A program made the translations under genes and the position numbers. DNA of 64,000 nt from Mobula birostris (taxonomy: Eukaryota): the NCBI RefSeq assembly GCF_030028105.1, contig NC_092393.1, positions 36,309,248-36,373,247 on the forward strand, written 5' to 3'. The notes beneath the pieces are model-generated. The model saw only the letters and a list, made by a program, of their open reading frames with translations. It was not told where the DNA came from and ran no database searches. Below are positions 4,803 through 55,605 of the stretch, piece by piece; position 1 is the stretch's first letter, and each line of letters starts with the position of its first letter.

Positions 4803-6665
4803 GAATGGTTGTCCATCATACTGGACGATACCAGTTCGACTTGTGCATTCTGTTTTGTGTTCGTGAGGAACTACTGAGTCTGAGTTGTGAGTGGACCCTT
4901 TGCTTCTTTGTCAGGAAGAAATTAGTACTGCTCGGCTTTTCTCCTTCAAGTTGTTGTGAGCAGTTCTAACCAATGTATGTCAGCCAATCCGGTCTTACGC
5001 ATTCTGTTCTAGCCATTTTAATAAAAGCCCAGCATGTGCTCTCACACAGTCTTTGAACCTGTACCTTGATTCCTATTGCCCAGCAAAAGCTCATCATATA
5101 GAAGCTGCCTGGGGATTTGGGAATCATTCATGTGTATGACACACTCTGTCCACTGATGCTATGCTTCTACAATCATGTCCTCAACACTCGTGGTCCCTGC
5201 CATGTCGAGGGCTTCCAGGTTTAGTCATAGTCATAGCCATAGTCATACTTTATTGATCTCGAGGGAAATTTGGTTTCGTTACAGTTGCACCAACCAAGAA
5301 CAGAGTATAAATATAACAATATAAAACTATAAATAATTAAATAGTAATATGTAAATTATGCCAGGAAATAAGCCCAGGACCAGCCTATTGCCTCAGGGTG
5401 TTTGACCCTCCAAGGGAGGAGTTGTAAAGTTTGATGGCCACAGGCAGGAATGACTTCCTATGACGCTCTGTGTTTCATCTCGGTGGAATGAGTCTCTGGC
5501 TGAATGTACTCCTGTGCCCAACCAGTACATTATGTAGTGGATGGGAGACATTGTCCAAGATGGCGTGCAACTTGGACAGCATCCTCTTTTCAGACACCAC
5601 CGTGAGAGAGTCCAGTTCCATCCCTATAGCATCACTGGCCTTGCGAATGAGTTTGTTGATTCTGTTGGTGTCTGCTACCCTCAGCCTGCTGCCCCAGCAC
5701 ACAATAGCAAACATGATAGCACTGGTCACCACAGACTCATAGAACATCCTCAGCATCGTCCGGCAGATGTTAAAGGACCTCAGTCTCCTCAGGAAATAGA
5801 GACGACTCTGACCCTTCTTGTAGACAGCCTCAGTGTTCTTTAACCAGTCCAGTTTATTGTCAATTCATAACCCCAGGTATTTGTAATCCTCCACCATGTC
5901 CACACTGACCCCCTGGATGGAAACAGGGGTCACTGGTGCCTTAGCCCTCCTCAGGTCCACCACCAGCTCCTTAGTCTTTTTCACATTAAGCTGCAGGTAA
6001 TTCTGCTCACACCATGTGACGAAGTTTCCTACCGTAGCAGGTTTGTGACTCAGACCTGCCAACAGATACTGAGGATTGACCTCACACTACACATATGGAA
6101 TCCTTCTAGTATTTTGAGGTGTCTTCTGTAAATGGTCCAGATTTCATATCCATACAGGAGACTGCTGAGGAGAACAGCTTTGTACACCTTCAGTTTTGAG
6201 GACAGGGAGATATTGTGCTGCAATCGTAGTCGACCAAGGCACTGGCCGGCCTTGCAAATCCTAGCGCAGACTTCTCTGTCCAGTGATTCTGGGGAGCTAC
6301 TTGAATTCTTCCACTGTTCTCAGTCTTGTTCCCTCAATAGTTATAGAGGGGGTTGTAGCAGCTGATCCAGGAGCAGGTTGAAATAGGACTTCTATCTTGC
6401 TTAGGCTGTCACTAAATCCAAAGATATGTGAGGCTTCAGCAAACTTGTTGACCATTAGTTAAAAGTCAGACTCAGTGTGTGCCCTCGGAGCGCAGTTGTT
6501 GGTGTACAGGGCTTCAAGGATGAATTTGTTGCTATCTTTGTTCAGGCACTCAGATGACACAGGTCGAGGAGTGATCCATCAAGTCCATACTTCAGGTAGA
6601 CACCACATTCAAGGTCTTTGATTGTGTGGTTCAGCACTTAAGTGTGCTTCTTCATCTTTGGCATC
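4803..6665 (-). mobile_element. RTE-clade LINE fragment nested in CR1 and split by a Rex1 insertion
   Basis: Minus-strand KLKVYKAVLLSSLLYGYEIWTIYRRHLK...ICWQ (6050-6200) continues as TNLEALDMAG...IPRQLLYDELLLG (5070-5220): RTE RT C-terminal region. Confidence 0.75.
5223..6037 (-). mobile_element. Rex1/Babar-clade LINE, 5'-truncated, copy 1
   Basis: QLNVKKTKELVVD, FYESVVTSAIMFAIVCWG, SHPLH motifs; (CTATGA)n tail; TSD caggttt at 5216-5222 and 6038-6044. Confidence 0.9.
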
Positions 6666-8761
6666 TATCTATCCTGCACCTTCCAAATTCCCCCTAGAAA
6701 CTACTGCTATTGTTGCTCTGCCATTATTCCTGCTCGTGTCCTGTAGAGATTAACTTTGCCCTCTGTAATTCACATTACTCCATTGTAATACTGATTCATC
6801 TGACTTTATGTTCTTCATCTCAAACTGCAAAGTGAATTCTATCATATTATGATCACTATCTCTTAAGGGTTCCTGTACCTTAAGCTTCCTAATAAAATCT
6901 GATTCATTATGCAATGCCAGTATTACCATTCCCCTAATAGGCTCAACTACAAGCTGCTTTAAAAACCCATCTCCTAGGCATTCTACAAATTCCCTCTCTT
7001 GGGATCAAGCAACAACCAGATTTTTCCCAATCTATCTGTGTATTGAAATCCCTATGACTATCATAACATTGCCCTTATTGCATGCCTTTTCTGTAATTTA
7101 TATCCTACATCCTGACTACCGTTCAGAGGCCTGTATATAACTGCCATCAGGGTCTTATTACCCTTGCAATGTCTTAACTCTACCCACAAGGATTCTACAT
7201 CTTCCAATCCTATGTCACCTCTTCCTAAGGATTTGATTTAATATTTTGCCAACAGACCTATCCCACCCCCTCTACCTATCTTCCTATCCATTTGATAAAA
7301 TGTGTGTCCTTGGATGTTAAACTCCTCACTGTGATGCTGTTTCAGCCACAACTCAGTGATGCCCTCAATGTCATACCTTCCAACCTCTTAACTGCACTCG
7401 GTTCATCTACCTTATTCTGTATACTGCGTGCATTCAAGTATAACACGTTCAGTCCTGTATTCATCACCCTTTTTGATTTTGCCCCCATGCCATCTCACTG
7501 ACTGCAATTATACCCTATCATCTGTCTGACCATCCTCACAGTCTCACTGCACAATGCATTGACATGTATACCAATTTACCCCATCCTCACTCCTATCTCT
7601 CCGGTTCCCATCCTCCTGCCAGGTTAGTTTAAATCCTGCCCAACAGCTCTAACAAGCTCGTCCACAAGGATATTGGTCCCCGTCGGATTCGGGTGTAACC
7701 GATCTTTTTTGCACAGGCCCTTTTTTCCCCAGAAGAGATCCCAGTGATCCAGAAAACTGAAAGCCTTCCCCTGCACCACTTCCTCAGCCACTCATTCATC
7801 TGTGCTATCACTCTATTCTTGTCCTGACTAGCATATGGTACTGGGAGTAATCCTGAGGTTACTACCTTCGAGGTCCTGCTCTTCAGCCTCTTCCCTAACT
7901 CCCTATACTCACTGCACAGGACCTCTTCCTCCTTTCTACTTTTGTCATTGGTGCCAATGTGCATCACAACCTCTAGCCCACCTTCACTCTTGAGAATCTT
8001 CTGCAGCTGCTCTGAGACATCCCAGACCCTAACTCATGGGAGGGAACACACCATCCTGGCATCTTTTTTTATGGCCGCAGAGTCTCCTAACCATCGTCCT
8101 AACTATCGAGTCTCCTTATCACTATCGCCCTGCCAGACTTTACCCTTCCCTGCTGAACCTCAGAGTTGGCCATAGTGCCACTGGCCTGGCTTTTGCTGTT
8201 GTACCCTAACAGGTCATTCCTGCTCCCAGTAGAATTCAACGGGGTGCACTTGTTGCTGAGGGGAATGGCCACAGTGAGACCCTGTGCTGACTGCTTACTC
8301 CCCTTAATTCTGCTGCTGGTCACCCATCTACTATCCCCTTTCTCAACCTCTCGGTCTCCATCTTTGGAGACAGACTGTCCACTGACATCTACAAGCCCAC
8401 TGACTCTCATAACTACCTTGACTATACCTCTTCCCACCCCGCCACATGCAAAAATGCCATTCCCTATTCCCAGTTCCTCCGTCTCTGCCACATCTGCTCC
8501 CAGGATGAGGTTTTCCGTTCCAGGACATCTCAAATGTCCACTTTCTTTAAGGATCGTGGTTTCCCTTCTGCCATCATCAATCATGCCCTCACCCGCATCT
8601 CCTCCATTTCCCGCACTTCGGACCTCACCCCATCCTCCCGCCACCACAACAGGAACAGAGTTCCACTTGTCCTCACTTGTTCCACCAGCCTCTGGATCCA
8701 GCACATTATCCTCCGCAACTTCCGCCACCTTCAACAGGACCCCACCACTAAGCACATCTTT

Positions 8762-8802
8762 CGATCAATAAAGTCGATCAATAAAGTATGACTACTACTA
8801 CT
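8762..8802 (+). mobile_element. 41-bp extreme 3' tail of a Rex1-like LINE inserted into the Penelope ORF
   Basis: gatcaataaagtatgacta matches the Rex1 3' ends at ~5240 and ~27295 (reverse complement); TSD atcttt at 8756-8761 and 8803-8808. Confidence 0.8.
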
Positions 8803-9572
8803 ATCTTTCCCTCTACACCCCTCTCCGCTTTCCGCAGGAACTGGTCCCTCCGCGACTCCCTGATCCACACGTCCCTCCCCACGGATCTCCCACCCGGCAC
8901 TTATCCCTGTAAGCGTAAGTGCTACATCTGTCCCTACACCTCCTCTCTTGCCACCATTCAGGGCTCCAAACAGTCCTTCCAGGTGAGGCAACACTTCACT
9001 TGTGAGTCTGTTGGGGTCATCTATTGCATCCGGTGCTCCCGGTGTGGCCTCCTGTACATTAGTGAAACCCGACGCAGATTGGGGGACCGCTTCGTCGAGC
9101 ACCTCCGCTCCGTCCGCCACAACAGACAGGATCTCTCGGTAGCCACCCACTTCAACTCTGCCTCACATTCCCATTTGGATATGCCCATATATGGCCTCCT
9201 CTACTGCCATGATGAAGCCAAACTCAGGTTGGAGGAGCAACACCTCATATACTGTCTAGGTAGTCTCCAGCCCCTTGGTATGAACATAGAATTCTCCAAC
9301 TTCCAGTAATTCCCTCCCCCTCCCTTCCTCTATCCCTATTTCACTCTGCCCCCTCCCCTAGCTGCCTATCACCTCCCTCATGGTTCCACCTCCTTCTACT
9401 ACCCATTGTGTTTTCCCCATTCCTTCTACACCTTTCCTGCCTATCCTCTCCCTGCTTCCCCTCCCCCACCCCTTTATCTTTCCCCTTACTGGTTTTTCAC
9501 CTGGAACCTACCAGCCTTCTCCTTCCCACCCTCCCCCCACCTTCTTTATAGAGCCTCTGCCCCTTCCCTCTA

Positions 9573-9610
9573 CAGTCCTGACGAAGGGTTCCGGCCCGAA
9601 ACGTTGACTG
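9573..9610 (+). ncRNA. Minimal type-I hammerhead ribozyme motif (Penelope-associated)
   Basis: CAGTC-CTGACGA-A-GGG(ttccgg)CCC-GAAA-CGTT-GACTG: stem I CAGTC/GACTG, CUGANGA box, stem II, GAAA box, palindromic AACGTT helix III, NUH site. Confidence 0.75.
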
Positions 9611-10296
9611 ATCATTTCTACGGATGCTGCCCGACCTGCTGAGTTCCTCCAGCGTGCTGTGAGTGTTGCTTTGACCTCAGCATCTGCAGAGTATTTTGTA
9701 TTTACTATCTGAAGCCAACACTCTGGTGAAAGTCTCATCGATGAAGTTTTCAGCCTCCTGGATGGTCCTGAGTGCGTTCAGCTCCAGCTCCAGCTCCATG
9801 ACATCGTTAATCAGGAACTGCAGTTGGGTGCACTGTCATCAGGGAGACTGTCAGATACCCTTGAGATCCCACATCTCACAGGAGGAGCATTCCACCTCCT
9901 GAACTACCATCCCGCCTACATTTGTTGTACCTCTAACTTCTCAAGCTTAAGTTCCAGCCTCAGCCTGTTCTTAAATAAGCCCGTCAAGCCAGACTATTGA
10001 CTCCAACAAAGGCTGCTCCGTTTACACCCCGCTTCTTTTTACTGGCCCCGATTGTTATGATTACAGCCCACTGAAAATTTCCAAAAGGTCCCAAGCTCTT
10101 TTTAAACCTTCCACGTAAAGACAACAAGGAGCTGTCTCCAACACACTCTGTGACCTCCCACCGCACAAGACAAGTCTCGACAGGTCCTGGTCACTTTTTA
10201 AACCTGGCACGTAAAGTCCACAAGGAACTGACGGCAACTCATAGGAGAGAGTTTTATCTGAGGAACTTTGAACTTTAATCCTCAGTTTCATCTGAG

Positions 10297-10590
10297 GATC
10301 AAAGTTCAAAGTAAATTTATTATCAAAGCCATATACGGTATGTCACCGTATACAACCCTGAGATTAATTTTCTTGTGGGTATTCACAGTAACTACAAGAA
10401 ACACAACAGAGTCAATGAAAGACTGTATCCAACAGGATGTACGAACAATCAATGTGCAAAAGACAACAAACTGCAAATACAAAAATAAAGAAGTATTAAT
10501 GATAATAGTAAATACATAAGCAATAAATACAGTATCGAGGGCATGAGATGAGGTGAGGCTATAGGTTGTGGGAACAGTTCAATGGATCAA
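10297..10590 (-). mobile_element. 3' end of a Rex1/L2-like LINE with (TTTGAAC)n tail
   Basis: aaagttcaaagtaaatttattatcaaag...; same sequence recurs at ~24640, ~26325, ~41135 and ~42143. Confidence 0.7.
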
Positions 10591-12085: not shown

Positions 12086-13911
12086 ATGAAATAATGTTCC
12101 CTAGCTAGTCAGAAAGCTAATGTCAGAGGGGAAGGTGCTGTTTCTGAATCGACGAGTGTGGGTCTTCAGGCTCCTTACTTCTTCCTCAATGGTAGTAATA
12201 TGAGAAGAGTGTATTTCCCAGATAATAAGGGTCCTTAGTGAGGGATGCTACCTTCTTGAAGCACTGCCTCTTAAAGATTTCATTATGCCCGTGATGCAGA
12301 GAGCTGAGTCTACACCCTCTACAGCTTCTTGTAATTCTTCACACTAGGCTGTGATGCAACTATCCGAGATGCTCTTCACCTGTAAAACCAGTAATGCAGG
12401 TCACATTTAGACAGACTGTCTGTTCCCAGTGCTATAATATCAATGTTTCATCATCCAGCACAAACTCAGTGGACTGAATGGCCTCTCTCTGCCTATAATT
12501 GCTCTGAAATCCAATGTCAGCTCTTAAGCATGTAGGGTTTGTGACGTGAACTCTTCGTCAGCAAAGTAATTAGAATGCAGGTATGGGATAATCTAATCCA
12601 AGTTCAGGATAAGTGAATTGACAGAAAGATGAGGGGTAAATAAGCAGGAAGCCAACCAGCACAAAAAGTGGTGAACAGGTAATGTAATGAATTTCAAAGA
12701 CCTACATAATTCAAAATGGTAAACTGGAGTAAAGGCAAAAAAGAACACAGAGCAACAGCGCATTCAGATGCCTACAGCAGATAAGGAAAGATCAATTTTG
12801 AACTACAAAACTCTCACTAGTACATTAACTTCAAGACCACAAGATTTCTCTTCTTTAGGGAATAGTTCAGTTCAGTCAGCTTTGTTTTACAGCCATGGTG
12901 GTGCACTCACCTCTGTATCAGAAGGTTGTGAATTCAAATCTCATTGTAGCACTTGAGCAGAAAATATCAGGTCGGAAGTCTTGTCTGGTACAGAGGAAAT
13001 GCTGCATTGTGGGAGGTGATGTTATTTAGTATTCCCTCAGATGAACATAAAGAATTCTAGGGTAATATAGAGAAGAAGAGTAGAAGGTTATCCTTAGTTG
13101 TCACCAATATTTGGTGGATTCAGAATTGGCTTAGTGATAAAAATTAGGGGGCAATGGTTGAAGGTCAATTCTTTGAATGGAGGTCTGTGTCTGTTATTCG
13201 TTATTTATGTCAATAATTTGAATATGAATGTACATGGCATGATTTGAAAATTTGCTGATGATTCTAGATTAATGGTTCTTGTTGATAGTGATTTGGGTTA
13301 CAATGAATTTCAAAAAGAGCTGAATCAGTTAGAGACATTCATACCAGGGTAGGTCTTCTATGTAGTGATTGGCAGGGTACTGACAAGTGTTGTTCAACAG
13401 AGGGACCGAGGAGTACAAGCAGACGATTCATTGAAAGCGATCGCACAAGTAGGCAAGTTGGTGAAGAGGCTTTTAGCATGGTGGCCTACTTCAGTCAGGG
13501 CATGGAGTTTAGTGGTAGGGTCATTATGTTGCAGTTATATAAGTCATTGGTGAGGCTGTGTTTGGAGTATTGTGTCCAGGAATGGTCAGCCTGTTGGAAG
13601 AAAGATGTTGTCAAGCTGAAGAGAGTGCAGAAGAGATTTACAAGCATGCTGTCCAGACTAGAAGGCCTAAGTTATAGGGAGATGTTGGTCATGCTGAATC
13701 TTTATTCCCTGGAGTGCTGGAGAATCAGGAGTGATCTCATAGAAGCTTATAAAATCATGGGGCAGGGTGTGGATAAGGTGGACAGTAATAATCTTTTCCT
13801 CAGTGTTGGTGAGTCCAAAGCTAGAGGGCACAGGTGCAAAATAAGAAAGGAGAGATTTGAGAGAGACCTGAGAGGTAACTTCTTTACACAGAGGGCAGTG
13901 AGTACCTAGAA

Positions 13912-22864: not shown

Positions 22865-23113
22865 GGTAACCAAGAAGCCACAGCACCCCCAGAAGCAATG
22901 GCACAGCCCTATCCCCCGGCCCAGTACCCCACACCGCAGAACGGAATCCCCGCTGAATATGCTCCAGCGCACCCACACCCTACTCAGGACTACACCGGAC
23001 AGACCACGGTACCAGAGCACGCCATGACCATCTACACACCCACGCAGACGCATTCCGACCAGCCGTGCACTGATGCAAACACACAGTCCTTAACGGGCGC
23101 ATCCACAGTACCG
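22865..23113 (+). CDS. RBFOX3: Coding exon of RNA-binding Fox-1 homolog (N-terminal Pro/Thr-rich region), most like RBFOX3/NeuN
   Basis: Acceptor ttgtttcag|GGT at 22864/5, donor CCG|gtaagt at 23113/4; 83 codons [63 protein letters not shown]...TVP; PYPPAQY and HPTQDY fit RBFOX3 better than RBFOX1/2; MAQP ATG at 22898. Confidence 0.93.
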
Positions 23114-27277: not shown

Positions 27278-28332
27278 CATAGTCATAGTCATAGTCATAC
27301 TTTATTGATCCCGAGGGAAATTGATTTTCGTTACAGTTGCCCCAACCAAGAGTAGAGTATAAATATATCAATATAAAACCATAAATAATTAAATAGTAAT
27401 ATGTAAATTATGCCAGGAAATAAGTCCAGGACCAGCCTATTGCCTCAGGGTGTTTGACCCTCCAAGGGAGACGTTGTAAAGTTTGATGGCCACAGGCAGG
27501 AATGACTTCCTATGATGCTCAGTGTTGCATCTCGGTGGAATGAGTCTCTGGCTGAATGTACTCCTGTGCCCAACTAGTACATTATGTAGTGGATGGGAGA
27601 CATTGTCCAAGATGGCATACAACTTGGACAGCATCCTCTATTCAGACACCACCGTCAGAGAGTCCAGTTCCACCCCCACAGCATCACTGGCCTTACGAAT
27701 GAGTTTGTTGATTCTGTTGGTGTCTGCTACCCTCAGCCTGCTGCCCCAGCACACAACAGCAAACATGATAGCACTGGTCACCACAGACTCGTAGAACATC
27801 CTCAGCACCGTCCAACAGATGTTAAAGGACCTCAGTCTCCTCAGGAAATAGAGACGGCTCTGACCCTTCTTGTAGACAGCCTTAGTGTTCTTTGACCAGT
27901 CCAGTTTATTGTCAATTCGTATCCCCAGGTATTTCTAATCCTCCACCATGTCCACACTAACCCCCTGGATGGCTACAGGGGTCACCGGTGCCTCAGCCCT
28001 CCTCAGATCCACCACCAGCTCCTTAGTCTTTTTCACATTAAGCTGCAGATAATTCTGCTCACACCATGTGACAAAGTTTCCTACCGTAGCCCTGTACTCA
28101 GCCTCATCTCCCTTGTTGATGCATCTGACTATGGCAGAGTCATCAGAAAACTTCTGAAGATGGTAAGACTCTGTACAGTAGTTGAAGTCCGAGGTGTAGA
28201 TGGTGAAGAGAAAGGGAGACAAGACAGTCCCCTGTGGAGCCCCAGTGCTGCTGATCACTCTGTCGGACACACAGTATTGTAATCACACGTACTGTGGTCT
28301 GCCGGTCAGGTAATCAAGAATCCATGACACCA
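27278..28332 (-). mobile_element. Rex1/Babar LINE, 5'-truncated, copy 2 (same young family as 5223-6037)
   Basis: ORF 27935..28270 GAPQGTVLSPFLFTIYTSD...KFSDD; (CTATGA)n tail; visually >90% identical to copy 1; inserted in the tail of a V-SINE. Confidence 0.9.
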
Positions 28333-39734: not shown

Positions 39735-40020
39735 GGGTGGCACGGTAGCATAATGGTTAGCACAATGCTTTACAGTACCAGTGACACAGGTTCAATTCCC
39801 AGTGGTGCCCGTAAGGAATTTGTGCATTTTCCCAGTGACCACAAGGGTTTCCTCCGAGTGCTCTGGTTTCCTTCCACAGTCCAAAGGTGTACCGGTTGGT
39901 AGGTTAATTGCTCATTGTAAATTGTCCTGTGATTAGGCTAGGGTGAAATCAAGGGATTGCTGGCAGCGCGGTTGTAGGGCTGGAAGGGCCTATTCTGTGA
40001 CATATCTCAATAAATAAAAA
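39735..40020 (+). mobile_element. V-SINE (HE1-like)
   Basis: A box ggtagcataatggttagc, B box ggttcaattccc, V-domain ttcctccgagtgctctggtttccttccacagtccaaag, AATAAATAAAA tail. Confidence 0.85.
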
Positions 40021-46154: not shown

Positions 46155-46310
46155 AAAACCAAGAGATTCCACAGCTGCTGGAAATCGAGAGGAACACACG
46201 ATGAACCTATGATAAAGGGTATCGGCCCAAAACGTAGACTGTTTAATCCTCTCCATAGGTGCAAACTGGCCTGCTGAGTTCCTCCAGCATTTTGTGTGTG
46301 TTGCGCTGGG
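46155..46310 (+). mobile_element. Inverted Penelope pLTR fragments with hammerhead remnant
   Basis: tgataaagggtatcggcccaaaacgtagactg...ctgctgagttcctccagcattttgtgtgtgttgc. Confidence 0.7.
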
Positions 46311-52069: not shown

Positions 52070-55000
52070 AGACAGACAAGAGAAAATCTGCAGATGCTGG
52101 AAATCCAAGCAAAATGCTGGAGGAACTCAGCAGGCCAGGCAGAGACGAGCTGACATTTTAGGCAGAGACCCTTCATCAGAACTGGGGAAACACAAGGTTA
52201 TAGGTTAAACTGGGAGTGGAGAGGGAAGGGGTGAAGTAAAGAGCTGGGAAGTTGATTGGTGAAAGATTATAGGGCTGGAGAAGGGGGAATCTGATAGGAG
52301 AGAACAGAAGGCCATGGAAGAAAGAAAAAGGGGAAGAGCACCAGAGGGAGGTGATGGACAGGTAAAGAAATAACGTGAGAGAGGGAAATGGGAACGGGGA
52401 ATGGTGAAGGAGGGTAAAGGGCATGACCAGAAGTTTGAGAAATCAATGCTCATGCCATCAGGTTGGAGGCTACCCAGACAAAATATGTGTTGTTCCTCCA
52501 GCTTGAGTGTGGCCTCATCATGACAGTGGAGGAGGCCACAGATTGACATATTGGAATGAGAATGGGAAGTGGAATTAAGATGGGTGGCCACTGGGAGATC
52601 CTGCTTCTTCTGATGGATGGAGTGTAGGTGCTCGGTGAAGCAGTCGCCCAGTCTTCATCAGGTCTCACTGATATCACAAGACAAAGGAGCAGAAGTAGGC
52701 CATTCGGCCCAACGAGTCTACTCCGCAGCTCCCCCATGAGCTAAACTATTCACCCATCTAGTTCCAATTTCCGGCTTTTTCCCCATATCCCTTGATACCC
52801 TGACTAATTAGATACCTGTCAATCTCCTCCTTAAACACCCTCAATGATTGGGCCTCCACAGCTGTGTTTGGCAACGAATTCCACAAATCCACGACCCTCT
52901 GGCTAAAAAAGTTTCTCCTCATCTCTGTTTTAACTGGGTACCCTCTAATTCTAAGACTATGGCCTCTTGTCCTGGACTCACCCACCAAGGGAAACAACCT
53001 TTCCACATCTACTCTGTCCAACCCTTTCAACATTCGAAATCTTTCTATGAGATCCCCTCTCAATCTTCTATACTCTAATGAATACAGTCCAAGAGCCGAC
53101 AAACGCCCTGCATTCCAGGAATCATCCTCGTAAATCTTCTCTGAGCTCTCTCCAACATCAGTACATCCTTTCTAAGATAGGGGGCCCAAAACTGCACACA
53201 GTATTCCAAATGAGGTCTCACTAATGCCCCATAGAGCCTCATGAACACCTCCTTACTCTTGTACACTATTCCTCTTGAAATGAATGCCAACCGCCGATCC
53301 AACTTGTGGTTAACCTTTAGGGTATCCTGCACGAGGACCCCCAAGTCCCTTTGCACTTCTGATTTTTGAATTTTCTTCCCATCTAAATAATAATCTACCT
53401 GATTATTTCTTCTTCCAAAATGTACAACCGTACATTTGTCAACGTTGTATCTCAGCTGCCATTTCTTTGCCCACTCTCCCAAACTGACTAAGTGTCTCTG
53501 CAACCTTTCCGTTTCTTCAACATTTCCCACTCCTCCACCTATCTTGGTGTCATCCGCAAACTTAGTCAGAAAACTATTTAATCCATAATCCAAATCATCG
53601 ATATACATCATAAAAAGAAGCGGCCCCAACATCGACCCCTGCGGAACACCACTAGTAACCGGCAACCAATCAGAATAGGATCCCTTTATTCCCATCCTTT
53701 GCTTTCTGCCTATCAGGTAATGCTCCACCCATATCAATATCTTTCCTATAATTCCATGGGCTCTCATCTTATTAAGCAGCCTCATATGCGGCACCTTATC
53801 GAAGGCCTTTTGAAAATCCAAATACACAACATCCACAGCCTCTCCCTTGTCAATCTTATTCGAGATTACCTCAAAAAATTCCAATATGTTGGTGAGGCAG
53901 GATCTTCCCTTCATGAAACCATGCTGGCTTCGGCCTATCTTGTCATGCACCTCGAGGTATTTCATAACCTCGTCCTTGAGGATTGACTCCAATATCTTTC
54001 CAACTACCAATGTCAGACTAATAGATCTGTAATTTTCTTTTTGCTGCCTCCTTCCTTTCCCAAATAGCGGAACTTCATTTGCGACCTTCCAGTCCTCCGG
54101 AACCGTGCCAGAGTCTATTGATTCCTGGAAGATCATTTCCAATGCTTCCACAATCTCCAAAGCCACCTCCTTCAGAACCCTTGGGTGCACCTCAACCGGA
54201 ACAGGAGACTTATCTATTCTTAGTCCACTTAACTTCCCAAGCACTTTCTCTCTAGTAATCTTGAGTGTACCTAATTCTATTCCCTGATACCTCTGGCTAT
54301 CAGGTATATTGCTCATGTCTTCCACTGTGAAGACTGATGCAAAATACTCATTCAGTTCCTCCGCCATCTCTTTGTTATCCATTATAATTTCTCCAGCATC
54401 ATTTTCAATTGGTCCCGTATCTGCCCTTGTCACTCTTTTACTCTTCATATATTTAAAAAAACTTAGTATCCTTTTTTATGTTAATCGCCAACTTCCTTTC
54501 ATAATTAATCTTTTCTTTCCTAATGACTTCCTTAGTTTCCTCCTGTCAGTTTTTAAAAGTCTTCCAGTCCTCATTTTTCCCACTAATTTTTGCTTCCTTT
54601 TACGCCATTTCTTTTGCTTTTATTTTTGCCTTAACCTCTCTCGTTAGCCACATTTGTGCCATTTTTCCATTCATGATTTTCTTTTTTCTTGGAATATATT
54701 TTTCCTGCATTTTCCTTATTTCTTGTAGGAATTTCATCCAATTCTGCTCTGCCGTCCCTCCATTTAGCTTACTTTTCCAATCGACTTGGGCCAGTTCCTC
54801 TCTCTTACCACTGTAATTTCCCCTGTTCCACTGAAATATCGATACACCTGATACCAGCTTCTCCTTTTCAAATTTGAAAGTGAACTCAATCATATTATGA
54901 TCACTACTTCCAAGGGGTTCCTTTACCTCCAGCTCCCTAATCGCCTCGTTACACAGCACCCAATCCAAAACAGCCGGTCCCCTGGTGGGCTTCTGGACAA

Positions 55001-55605
55001 GCTGCTCCAAAAAGCCATCCTGTAGGCATTCTACAAACTCCCTCTCCTGAGATCCATTACCTTCCTGACTTTCCCAATCCACTTTCATATTAAAATCCCC
55101 CATAATTATCTTGACATTTTCCTTCTGACATGCTTTTTCTGTTTCCAGCTGCAACTTGTAGTCACATCCCGGCTGCTGTTTGGAGGCCTGTATATAACTG
55201 TTATTAGTGTCTTTTTACCCTTGCCATTTCTTAATTCTACCCATAAGGATTCTACCTCTTCTGATCCTATGTCCCTTCTTTCTATTGATTTGATATCGTT
55301 ACTTACCATCAGGGCCACGCCACCTCCTTTACCTACCTTCCTATCTTTCCTATACACTGTGTATCCTTGGATATTCAGCTCCCAATCATATCCATCATTT
55401 AGCCATGACTCGGTGATGGCCACAATGTCATACCTTTTAACCTGCAGCTGTGCAGCAAAGTCATCCACTTTATTTCTAATGCTGCGTATACAGGAGGTCA
55501 CATCGGGAGCACCAGATAGAGTAGATGACCCGAACACACTCACAGGTGAAGCATTGCTTCATCTGGAAGGACTGTTTGGGGCCCTAAATGGTAGTGAGGT
55601 GTCTT
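52070..55605 (-). mobile_element. Penelope-like element (pLTR + GIY-YIG) split by a CR1 insertion; parts 52070-52674 and 55488-55605
   Basis: ATHLNSTSHSHSNMSICGLLHCHDEATLKLEEQH (52205..52591); GIY-YIG segment resumes at 55488 (caggaggtcacatcgggagcacc). Confidence 0.8.
52675..55487 (-). mobile_element. Young CR1 LINE, ORF2 nearly intact (EN + RT), 5'-truncated
   Basis: ORFs 55106..55543 (ITESWL, YRKDR, IYRPP), 54600..55154 (GDFN, SDH) and 53075..54448 (YLDFQKAFDKVPH, GVPQGS.LGP, FADD). Confidence 0.93.

Follow-up and report, generated by a model that had tools for sequence, protein, structure and literature searches.

Minimal type I hammerhead ribozymes have been described from the terminal repeats of Penelope-like elements (PLEs), where thousands of them occur in fish, coelacanth and frog genomes (PMC4209133). 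These motifs are reported to pair via a palindrome, swapping their stem I strands, and the Schistosoma version does not cleave as a monomer and cleaves at a low level as a dimer (PMC4209133). A PLE hammerhead from Anolis cleaved only together with the element's protein, and RNA-seq revealed no ends at its site (PMC11167929). In trans-cleaving designs, GUU ranks next to last among the cleavage triplets (PMC8879150). Non-LTR retrozymes, which carry related hammerheads, have been reported in the one chondrichthyan sampled (bioRxiv 10.64898/2026.07.22.740005). The main-text sections of PMC4209133 covered here do not name cartilaginous fishes, whose motifs its supplements may list, and a search by title and abstract start, with repeat libraries outside its scope, found no publication on the ray family described below.

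We analysed a 64,000-nt stretch of ray DNA (the window) in which 9573-9610 had been read as an intact minimal hammerhead core within a Penelope pseudo-LTR. A direct sequence check of these letters agreed with that reading, and a type I descriptor run over both strands of the 64 kb matched this place and no other, confirming the core together with its 5-bp stem I and 3-bp stem II (Table 1). The features of metazoan PLE minimal hammerheads are all present: CUGANGA, GAAA and UH, the extra nucleotide, a G10.1-C11.1 pair (G9586-C9597), a palindromic 15.2-16.2 and the lack of helix III. By these sequence features the motif belongs to that group, and the class originally assigned agrees with the published motifs. 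Standard numbering also puts the predicted cut where it had been foreseen, after 9605. In the active hammerhead fold, A14 and N17 are unpaired core residues. The loop-less helix III that had been proposed is indeed palindromic, but the palindrome is ACGU; the longer AACGUU adds A14 (9600) and the cleavage nucleotide U17 (9605), and in that form the claim was given up.

Table 1. Coordinates of the features discussed, in window positions.
Feature	Position	Strand	Basis or remark
Target-site duplication TACTATC, left copy	8329..8335	+	7 nt
5'-truncated, putatively Neptune-like Penelope element, 1367 nt, single copy, no tandem partner	8336..9702	+	target duplication, contig depth
RT C-terminal end (putative thumb) and linker start	8336..8762	+	ORF 8291-8791; RT core missing
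47-nt secondary insertion	8763..8809	+	duplicated ATCTTTC at 8756-8762 and 8803-8809
Linker and GIY-YIG endonuclease	8810..9309	+	CX3CxxC zinc-finger-like motif in ORF 8785-9309
3' untranslated region (pseudo-LTR sequence)	9310..9702	+	pyrimidine-rich stretch, hammerhead, shared tail; repeat families D3, D11, D12
Minimal type I hammerhead motif	9573..9610	+	sequence, fold, descriptor, copy alignment
Stem I of hammerhead	9573-9577 with 9606-9610	+	5 bp
C3-A9 box CUGACGA	9578-9584	+	
Extra A between 9 and 10.1	9585	+	
Stem II	9586-9588 with 9595-9597	+	3 bp; possible fourth pair U-G (folding)
GAAA (G12-A15.1)	9598-9601	+	
Palindrome ACGU	9601-9604	+	C15.2 = 9602, G16.2 = 9603, U16.1 = 9604
Triplet GUU	9603-9605	+	U17 = 9605; predicted cut 9605/9606
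Target-site duplication TACTATC, right copy	9703..9709	+	7 nt
RBFOX3 coding exon, AG acceptor, GT donor	22866..23113	+	only RBFOX3 core exon found in window
Older motif copy, enzyme half broken	46204..46241	+	substrate half ACGUA/GACUG intact

The chance control for the descriptor, 60 simulated sequences with the same dinucleotide make-up, gave 0.05 matches expected per 64 kb. The folding energy of the motif is ordinary (z -1.69; 12 of 200 shuffles equally stable). A search with hammerhead models, the first check proposed for the motif, came back empty: two Rfam covariance-model scans at E up to 10 returned 11 and 1 matches, with the hammerhead family among none of them. A motif without helix III would suit these models badly.

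Relatives were found by an exact core pattern search, which recovered at least 121 metagenome loci that have the core, the extra A and ACGU in common with the ray motif. Stem I is paired well beyond expectation, with 38 of the 87 distinct motifs among the matches listed having at least four stem I pairs (shuffled mean 8.4, maximum 16). Covariation was scored on 46 rows, namely the 45 listed metagenome motifs with a 6-nt loop plus 9573-9610, and reached 0.322 for stem I as compared to 0.095 after shuffling (0 of 500 shuffles as high) and at most 0.098 in slid controls; 44 cells were changed on both sides versus 18 when shuffled, a type of count that relatedness inflates. Since stem II is fixed by the search pattern, this cross-family result covers stem I. 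The stem covariation anticipated for genomic copies is thus seen for stem I across metagenome families, but not among the 11 copies of the window (178 of 500 shuffles as high), as expected from neutral decay of one family. Twenty-one of the 121 listed loci also match the peptides of the host element described below, and 41 loci may have short flanks; among these 21, the motif lies downstream on the same strand in 17, within 82-220 nt in 13, and on the other strand in 4. At L012, L037 and L077, two opposite-strand hammerheads lie 52 or 476 nt apart, an inverted arrangement also noted in PMC4209133.

Regarding the host sequence, the proposed Penelope-like origin stood, but the presumed pseudo-LTR is here one solo 3' end without a tandem partner. 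Run X10 has a contig that matches the window from 8161 to 8335, where it ends; in four runs, contig depth goes up from bin 8270-8343 to bin 8344-8417 and drops after 9676-9749; and no second long element copy was found nearby. The peptide encoded by 8336-8762 matches a hammerhead-bearing metagenome locus, L003 (tblastn E 2e-40), and a Pfam search of the upstream ORF gave no match. The endonuclease matches Pfam PF01541 at E 0.009 and 16.7 bits, under the 22.6 cut-off; Atlas clusters with GIY-YIG match the ORF at 0.96-0.97, the GIY-YIG family being found on 13-22% of cluster members. The YIG glycine is Ser in this copy (base 9061), a position at which family reads differ. The hammerhead is placed 269 nt past the GIY-YIG stop and 97 nt short of the element end. 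A CX2-5CxxC zinc-finger-like linker has been described for Neptune and Nematis (PMC8557442). From the sequence we infer the clade as no more than 'Neptune-like', because the RT core is absent from the truncated copy.

The 47-nt insertion disrupts the reading frame, with a stop at 8789, and a form without it is present in runs X5 and X15 (joint 8755-8803, 47 nt skipped, 7 shared letters). In appearance it is the tail of a retrotransposon, inserted as a very short piece and accompanied by a duplication of 7 nt. It has a 19-nt stretch in common with the end of another repeat (5226-5260), and its start recurs at the end of a younger repeat present in two window copies, 5226-5525 and 27278-27577, which are 94% identical. 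When compared to a transposition-competent PLE, the element is 5'-truncated, is broken in frame at 8763-8809 and has one 3' end.

The flanks of the element resemble an older repeat of LINE type in the opposite orientation, presumably of a CR1-like family. All four runs aligned contain the element family itself in great abundance, and in the three that carry no RNA label its summed depth, which is not a copy number, exceeds that of bin 9972-10045 by 3-5 orders of magnitude. In organism B, an X5 contig covers 7993-8377 with the same 5' junction (2 differences, 1 gap), therefore the insertion predates that split; at the motif itself, paralogous contigs swamp the orthologue in this comparison. Diverged endonuclease fragments of the same family lie on the minus strand at 52205-52654 and 55489-55592 (70% amino-acid and 86% DNA identity). 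An X18 contig jumps back from 9665 to 8996, spanning 670 nt at depth 202, and so represents a different copy of the family in a tandem (partial) or circular form. X15 contigs, from organism G, reach 9610 or 9618 and, 5-7 letters further on, begin again at 9574. This suggests that another part of that genome has hammerheads in short repeats of about 45-50 nt, arranged head to tail, which could dimerise.

Searching the window for ungapped motif matches with at most 14 mismatches gave 12, of which 11 were kept as copies, 5 on the plus and 6 on the minus strand, without orientation bias; 12529-12566 was dropped, having 14 mismatches and no shared tail. CUGANGA is kept in 4 of the 11, GAAA in 3 and ACGU in 2, and all boxes occur together solely at 9573-9610, the single intact enzyme half on the plus strand. 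The copy at 46204-46241, 36.6 kb downstream, is the sole conceivable same-strand partner in the window.

The copies vary at three core dinucleotides in a manner typical of CpG sites. Across the 11 copies, 11.1-G12 reads CG in 2, CA in 4, TG in 2, TA in 2 and otherwise in 1; 15.2-16.2 reads CG in 2, TG in 7, CA in 1 and otherwise in 1; and 17-1.1 reads CG in 1, TG in 5, CA in 2, TA in 1 and otherwise in 2, so that 9 of 11 show CG or its decay products at the cleavage site. The ancestral sequence was probably GUC followed by G, and the GUU of this copy would then be a CpG deamination product, a reconstruction kept tentative because most window copies have U at position 17 (U in 6 of 11, C in 4). 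Position 9605 does not appear in the variant rows listed for the runs, which are 40 out of 120. With CpGs at G12, at 15.2-16.2 and at the cleavage site, ordinary methylation decay would disable copies of the ray family.

The element has a CpG observed/expected ratio of 0.49 versus 0.27 for the window, and the motif keeps 4 CpGs in 38 nt (1.15). Counting pieces at least 90% alike, each run shows 78-89 variable places in 2201 nt. The description of the motif as intact is thus correct in that the core is complete, but the completeness is best explained by a copy younger than its neighbours, rather than by selection, and one CpG change has probably already struck the cleavage triplet.

A GUU triplet alone does not mean a dead ribozyme, as it is natural in some families: of the 87 listed metagenome motifs, 24 have U at position 17, next to 60 with C, 1 with A and 2 with G. 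In no listed GUU motif is U17 followed by G. GUU and then U is a frequent reading in those metagenome motifs whose loop II is 4 nt long (L016, L017, L020, L026, L038, L043, L097, L103, L114 and others), which represent natural GUU minimal hammerheads.

We also modelled the folding of the RNA. In the predicted monomer, core residues G5-G8 are paired with 15.2-17 at a probability of 0.6-0.7 for three flank lengths, and the core is predicted to fold into an inactive rod. Relative to two monomers, the active dimer is predicted to be less stable by 9.3 kcal/mol, a figure that leaves out tertiary energy; as a family-like version with GUC and U7 has a predicted penalty of 8.3 kcal/mol, the penalty is mostly a family property and does not single out this copy. 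A dimer register that pairs AACGUU is predicted to be 2.6 kcal/mol stabler than the active register (-19.1 versus -16.5), which makes this pairing a drawback of GUU rather than a feature. For C17 variants, energies that count an A14:N17 pair were left out, such a non-standard pair not being meaningful. Contigs from X18, a run guessed to be RNA from organism A, span the family including the hammerhead region, strand, level and ends not being visible in them; the X18 piece over 9470-9618 has 11 differences from the window, and so comes from another copy.

The weak activity expected in the original prediction is in line with published monomers being inactive, dimers being weak or protein-dependent and GUU ranking low. 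Self-cleavage within a pre-mRNA, there put forward as a potential, is not supported as likely, given the solitary state of the copy, the absence of a full core from all 10 other window copies and the predicted rod.

The proposed host gene was borne out by the exon at 22866-23113, which is 99% identical to RBFOX3 of the stingrays Hemitrygon akajei and Hypanus sabinus and lies 13 kb downstream of the hammerhead on the same strand. Shark and ray isoforms have a conserved coding exon further upstream; the window was searched for it without success (tblastn E 0.13 at best), and three shorter alternative starts were likewise not found with one mismatch allowed, 2 of 5 motifs covering them partly. 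In those RBFOX3 isoforms that include the upstream exon, the motif lies within an intron in sense orientation; an unannotated first exon, or alternative ones of unmappably short length, could lie between 9610 and 22866. An Atlas search with the RBFOX3 exon gave no usable match, and a bacterial promoter and terminator scan of the window, a method not applicable to vertebrate DNA, returned nothing. On the plus strand, 50500-50652 matches, at 86%, an extra segment of the RBFOX3 isoform P0005 annotated in Hypanus sabinus; it contains two stops here, has a repeat copy at 39787-39891, and is probably a repeat-derived predicted exon. A near-perfect 50-nt hairpin at 10265-10314 (+), at the edge of another repeat, is matched weakly by microRNA models of Rfam (E 0.016, 27 bits versus 70 needed) and is probably an inverted repeat junction.

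Taken together, this analysis suggests, with a probability of roughly 86%, that the copy, although transcribed, is in essence a silent passenger from a Neptune-like Penelope element, cleaving little or not at all. In the mechanism we propose, the hammerhead would be part of the terminal repeat of such a retroelement. Wherever the element is active and in tandem, two halves would pair via ACGU, exchange stem I strands and cleave each other, as is known in other animals, and this mutual cleavage would free the element RNA, probably with the element's protein helping. The present copy would have inserted, 5'-truncated, into an older repeat of the RBFOX3 intron before the close relative split off, and a second insertion would then have struck it, leaving a passenger whose motif is presumably transcribed within RBFOX3 pre-mRNA. 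Little or no cleavage is expected because the motif has no partner, a poor triplet and a predicted inactive rod fold.

It is unlikely, though less so than the readings that follow, that low but real cleavage takes place in vivo, through pairing in trans with one of many transcribed family copies, through pairing with the substrate half at 46204-46241, or helped by the element's protein, slightly reducing RBFOX3 output. Such cleavage would be compatible with the fully intact enzyme half, the family hammerhead region within the X18 contigs, the protein-dependent cleavage of the Anolis element (PMC11167929) and the natural GUU families (24 of 87 listed metagenome motifs). However, the trans pair would be held by just 4-5 bp helices, mispairing of the motif's own stem I and core is predicted at a probability of about 0.7, the dimer lies energetically above two monomers (tertiary energy uncounted), the other copy is 36.6 kb distant, the X18 piece over the motif is another copy and the Anolis site shows no RNA-seq ends (PMC11167929). 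A broader version holds that ray pre-mRNAs contain many sense hammerhead halves, and that an intact enzyme half such as this one could pair with the substrate half of a different copy, within one transcript or in trans and perhaps aided by the element's protein, and cut the RBFOX3 intron; we regard this as quite improbable. If it were true, CpG decay at the three core positions would amount to a built-in ribozyme off-switch of the host, and if RBFOX3 pre-mRNA is cleaved at all, an abundant repeat would be a source of intron cuts in rays.

Still more doubtful is the domestication of the motif as an RBFOX3 regulator, by analogy with the conserved intronic hammerheads of amniotes (PMC6155905). 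That this is the only intact copy of 11, with 4 CpGs kept in 38 nt, sense to the gene and in an insertion common to organism B, would fit such a role, but the whole element looks young, so an intact core is expected anyway; moreover, the motif lacks helix III, canonical loop contacts and an Rfam match, its cleavage site has probably already been hit at the CpG, and the copies have no orientation bias. Finally, a chance pattern without ribozyme homologue, with which the ordinary folding energy (z -1.69), the missing Rfam match and the lack of covariation in window copies (178 of 500) would be consistent, has a negligible probability and was rejected on the descriptor control (1 match versus 0.05), the shared core, extra A and ACGU in at least 121 independent loci with metagenome stem I pairing and covariation (0 of 500 shuffles), and a position in the element that agrees with the published one.

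With the silent passenger as the preferred reading, the single locus matters little, given that Penelope terminal-repeat hammerheads are already described; the placement of CpGs in the core and the natural GUU in other minimal-hammerhead families are side results of modest value.

Among known systems, the locus most resembles the metazoan PLE minimal hammerheads, including those of Xena, Poseidon and Neptune of fishes, as the covered part of PMC4209133 describes them: type I without helix III, a palindromic 15.2-16.2, an extra nucleotide between 9 and 10.1, G10.1-C11.1, a helix I of 4-5 bp, and a place in terminal repeats, mostly as solo copies from truncated elements. It differs from the Schistosoma families of that report in helix II (3-4 bp here versus 7-8 bp), and from its examples in the GUU triplet. 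As in Poseidon PAc of Anolis carolinensis, the hammerhead lies in the pseudo-LTR of a vertebrate PLE; PAc, however, is full-length, tandem and active in vitro with a protein-dependent ribozyme (PMC11167929), whereas the ray copy is truncated and solitary and, unlike PAc, has the zinc-finger linker motif described for Neptune and Nematis. With animal non-LTR retrozymes it shares a type I hammerhead from Penelope terminal repeats, but those are non-coding tandem arrays with a hammerhead per unit (bioRxiv 10.64898/2026.07.22.740005), as opposed to one truncated coding element here; against the retrozyme pattern of tandem units with intact hammerheads, the plus strand of the window has one enzyme half. 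Like the amniote intronic hammerheads, such as that of RECK, it is of type I and in a vertebrate gene intron, yet those are canonical and conserved (PMC6155905), while the ray motif is minimal, lies within a transposon and bears no sign of selection. The motif at 9573-9610 is thus an ordinary and probably inert member of an already described kind of hammerhead.
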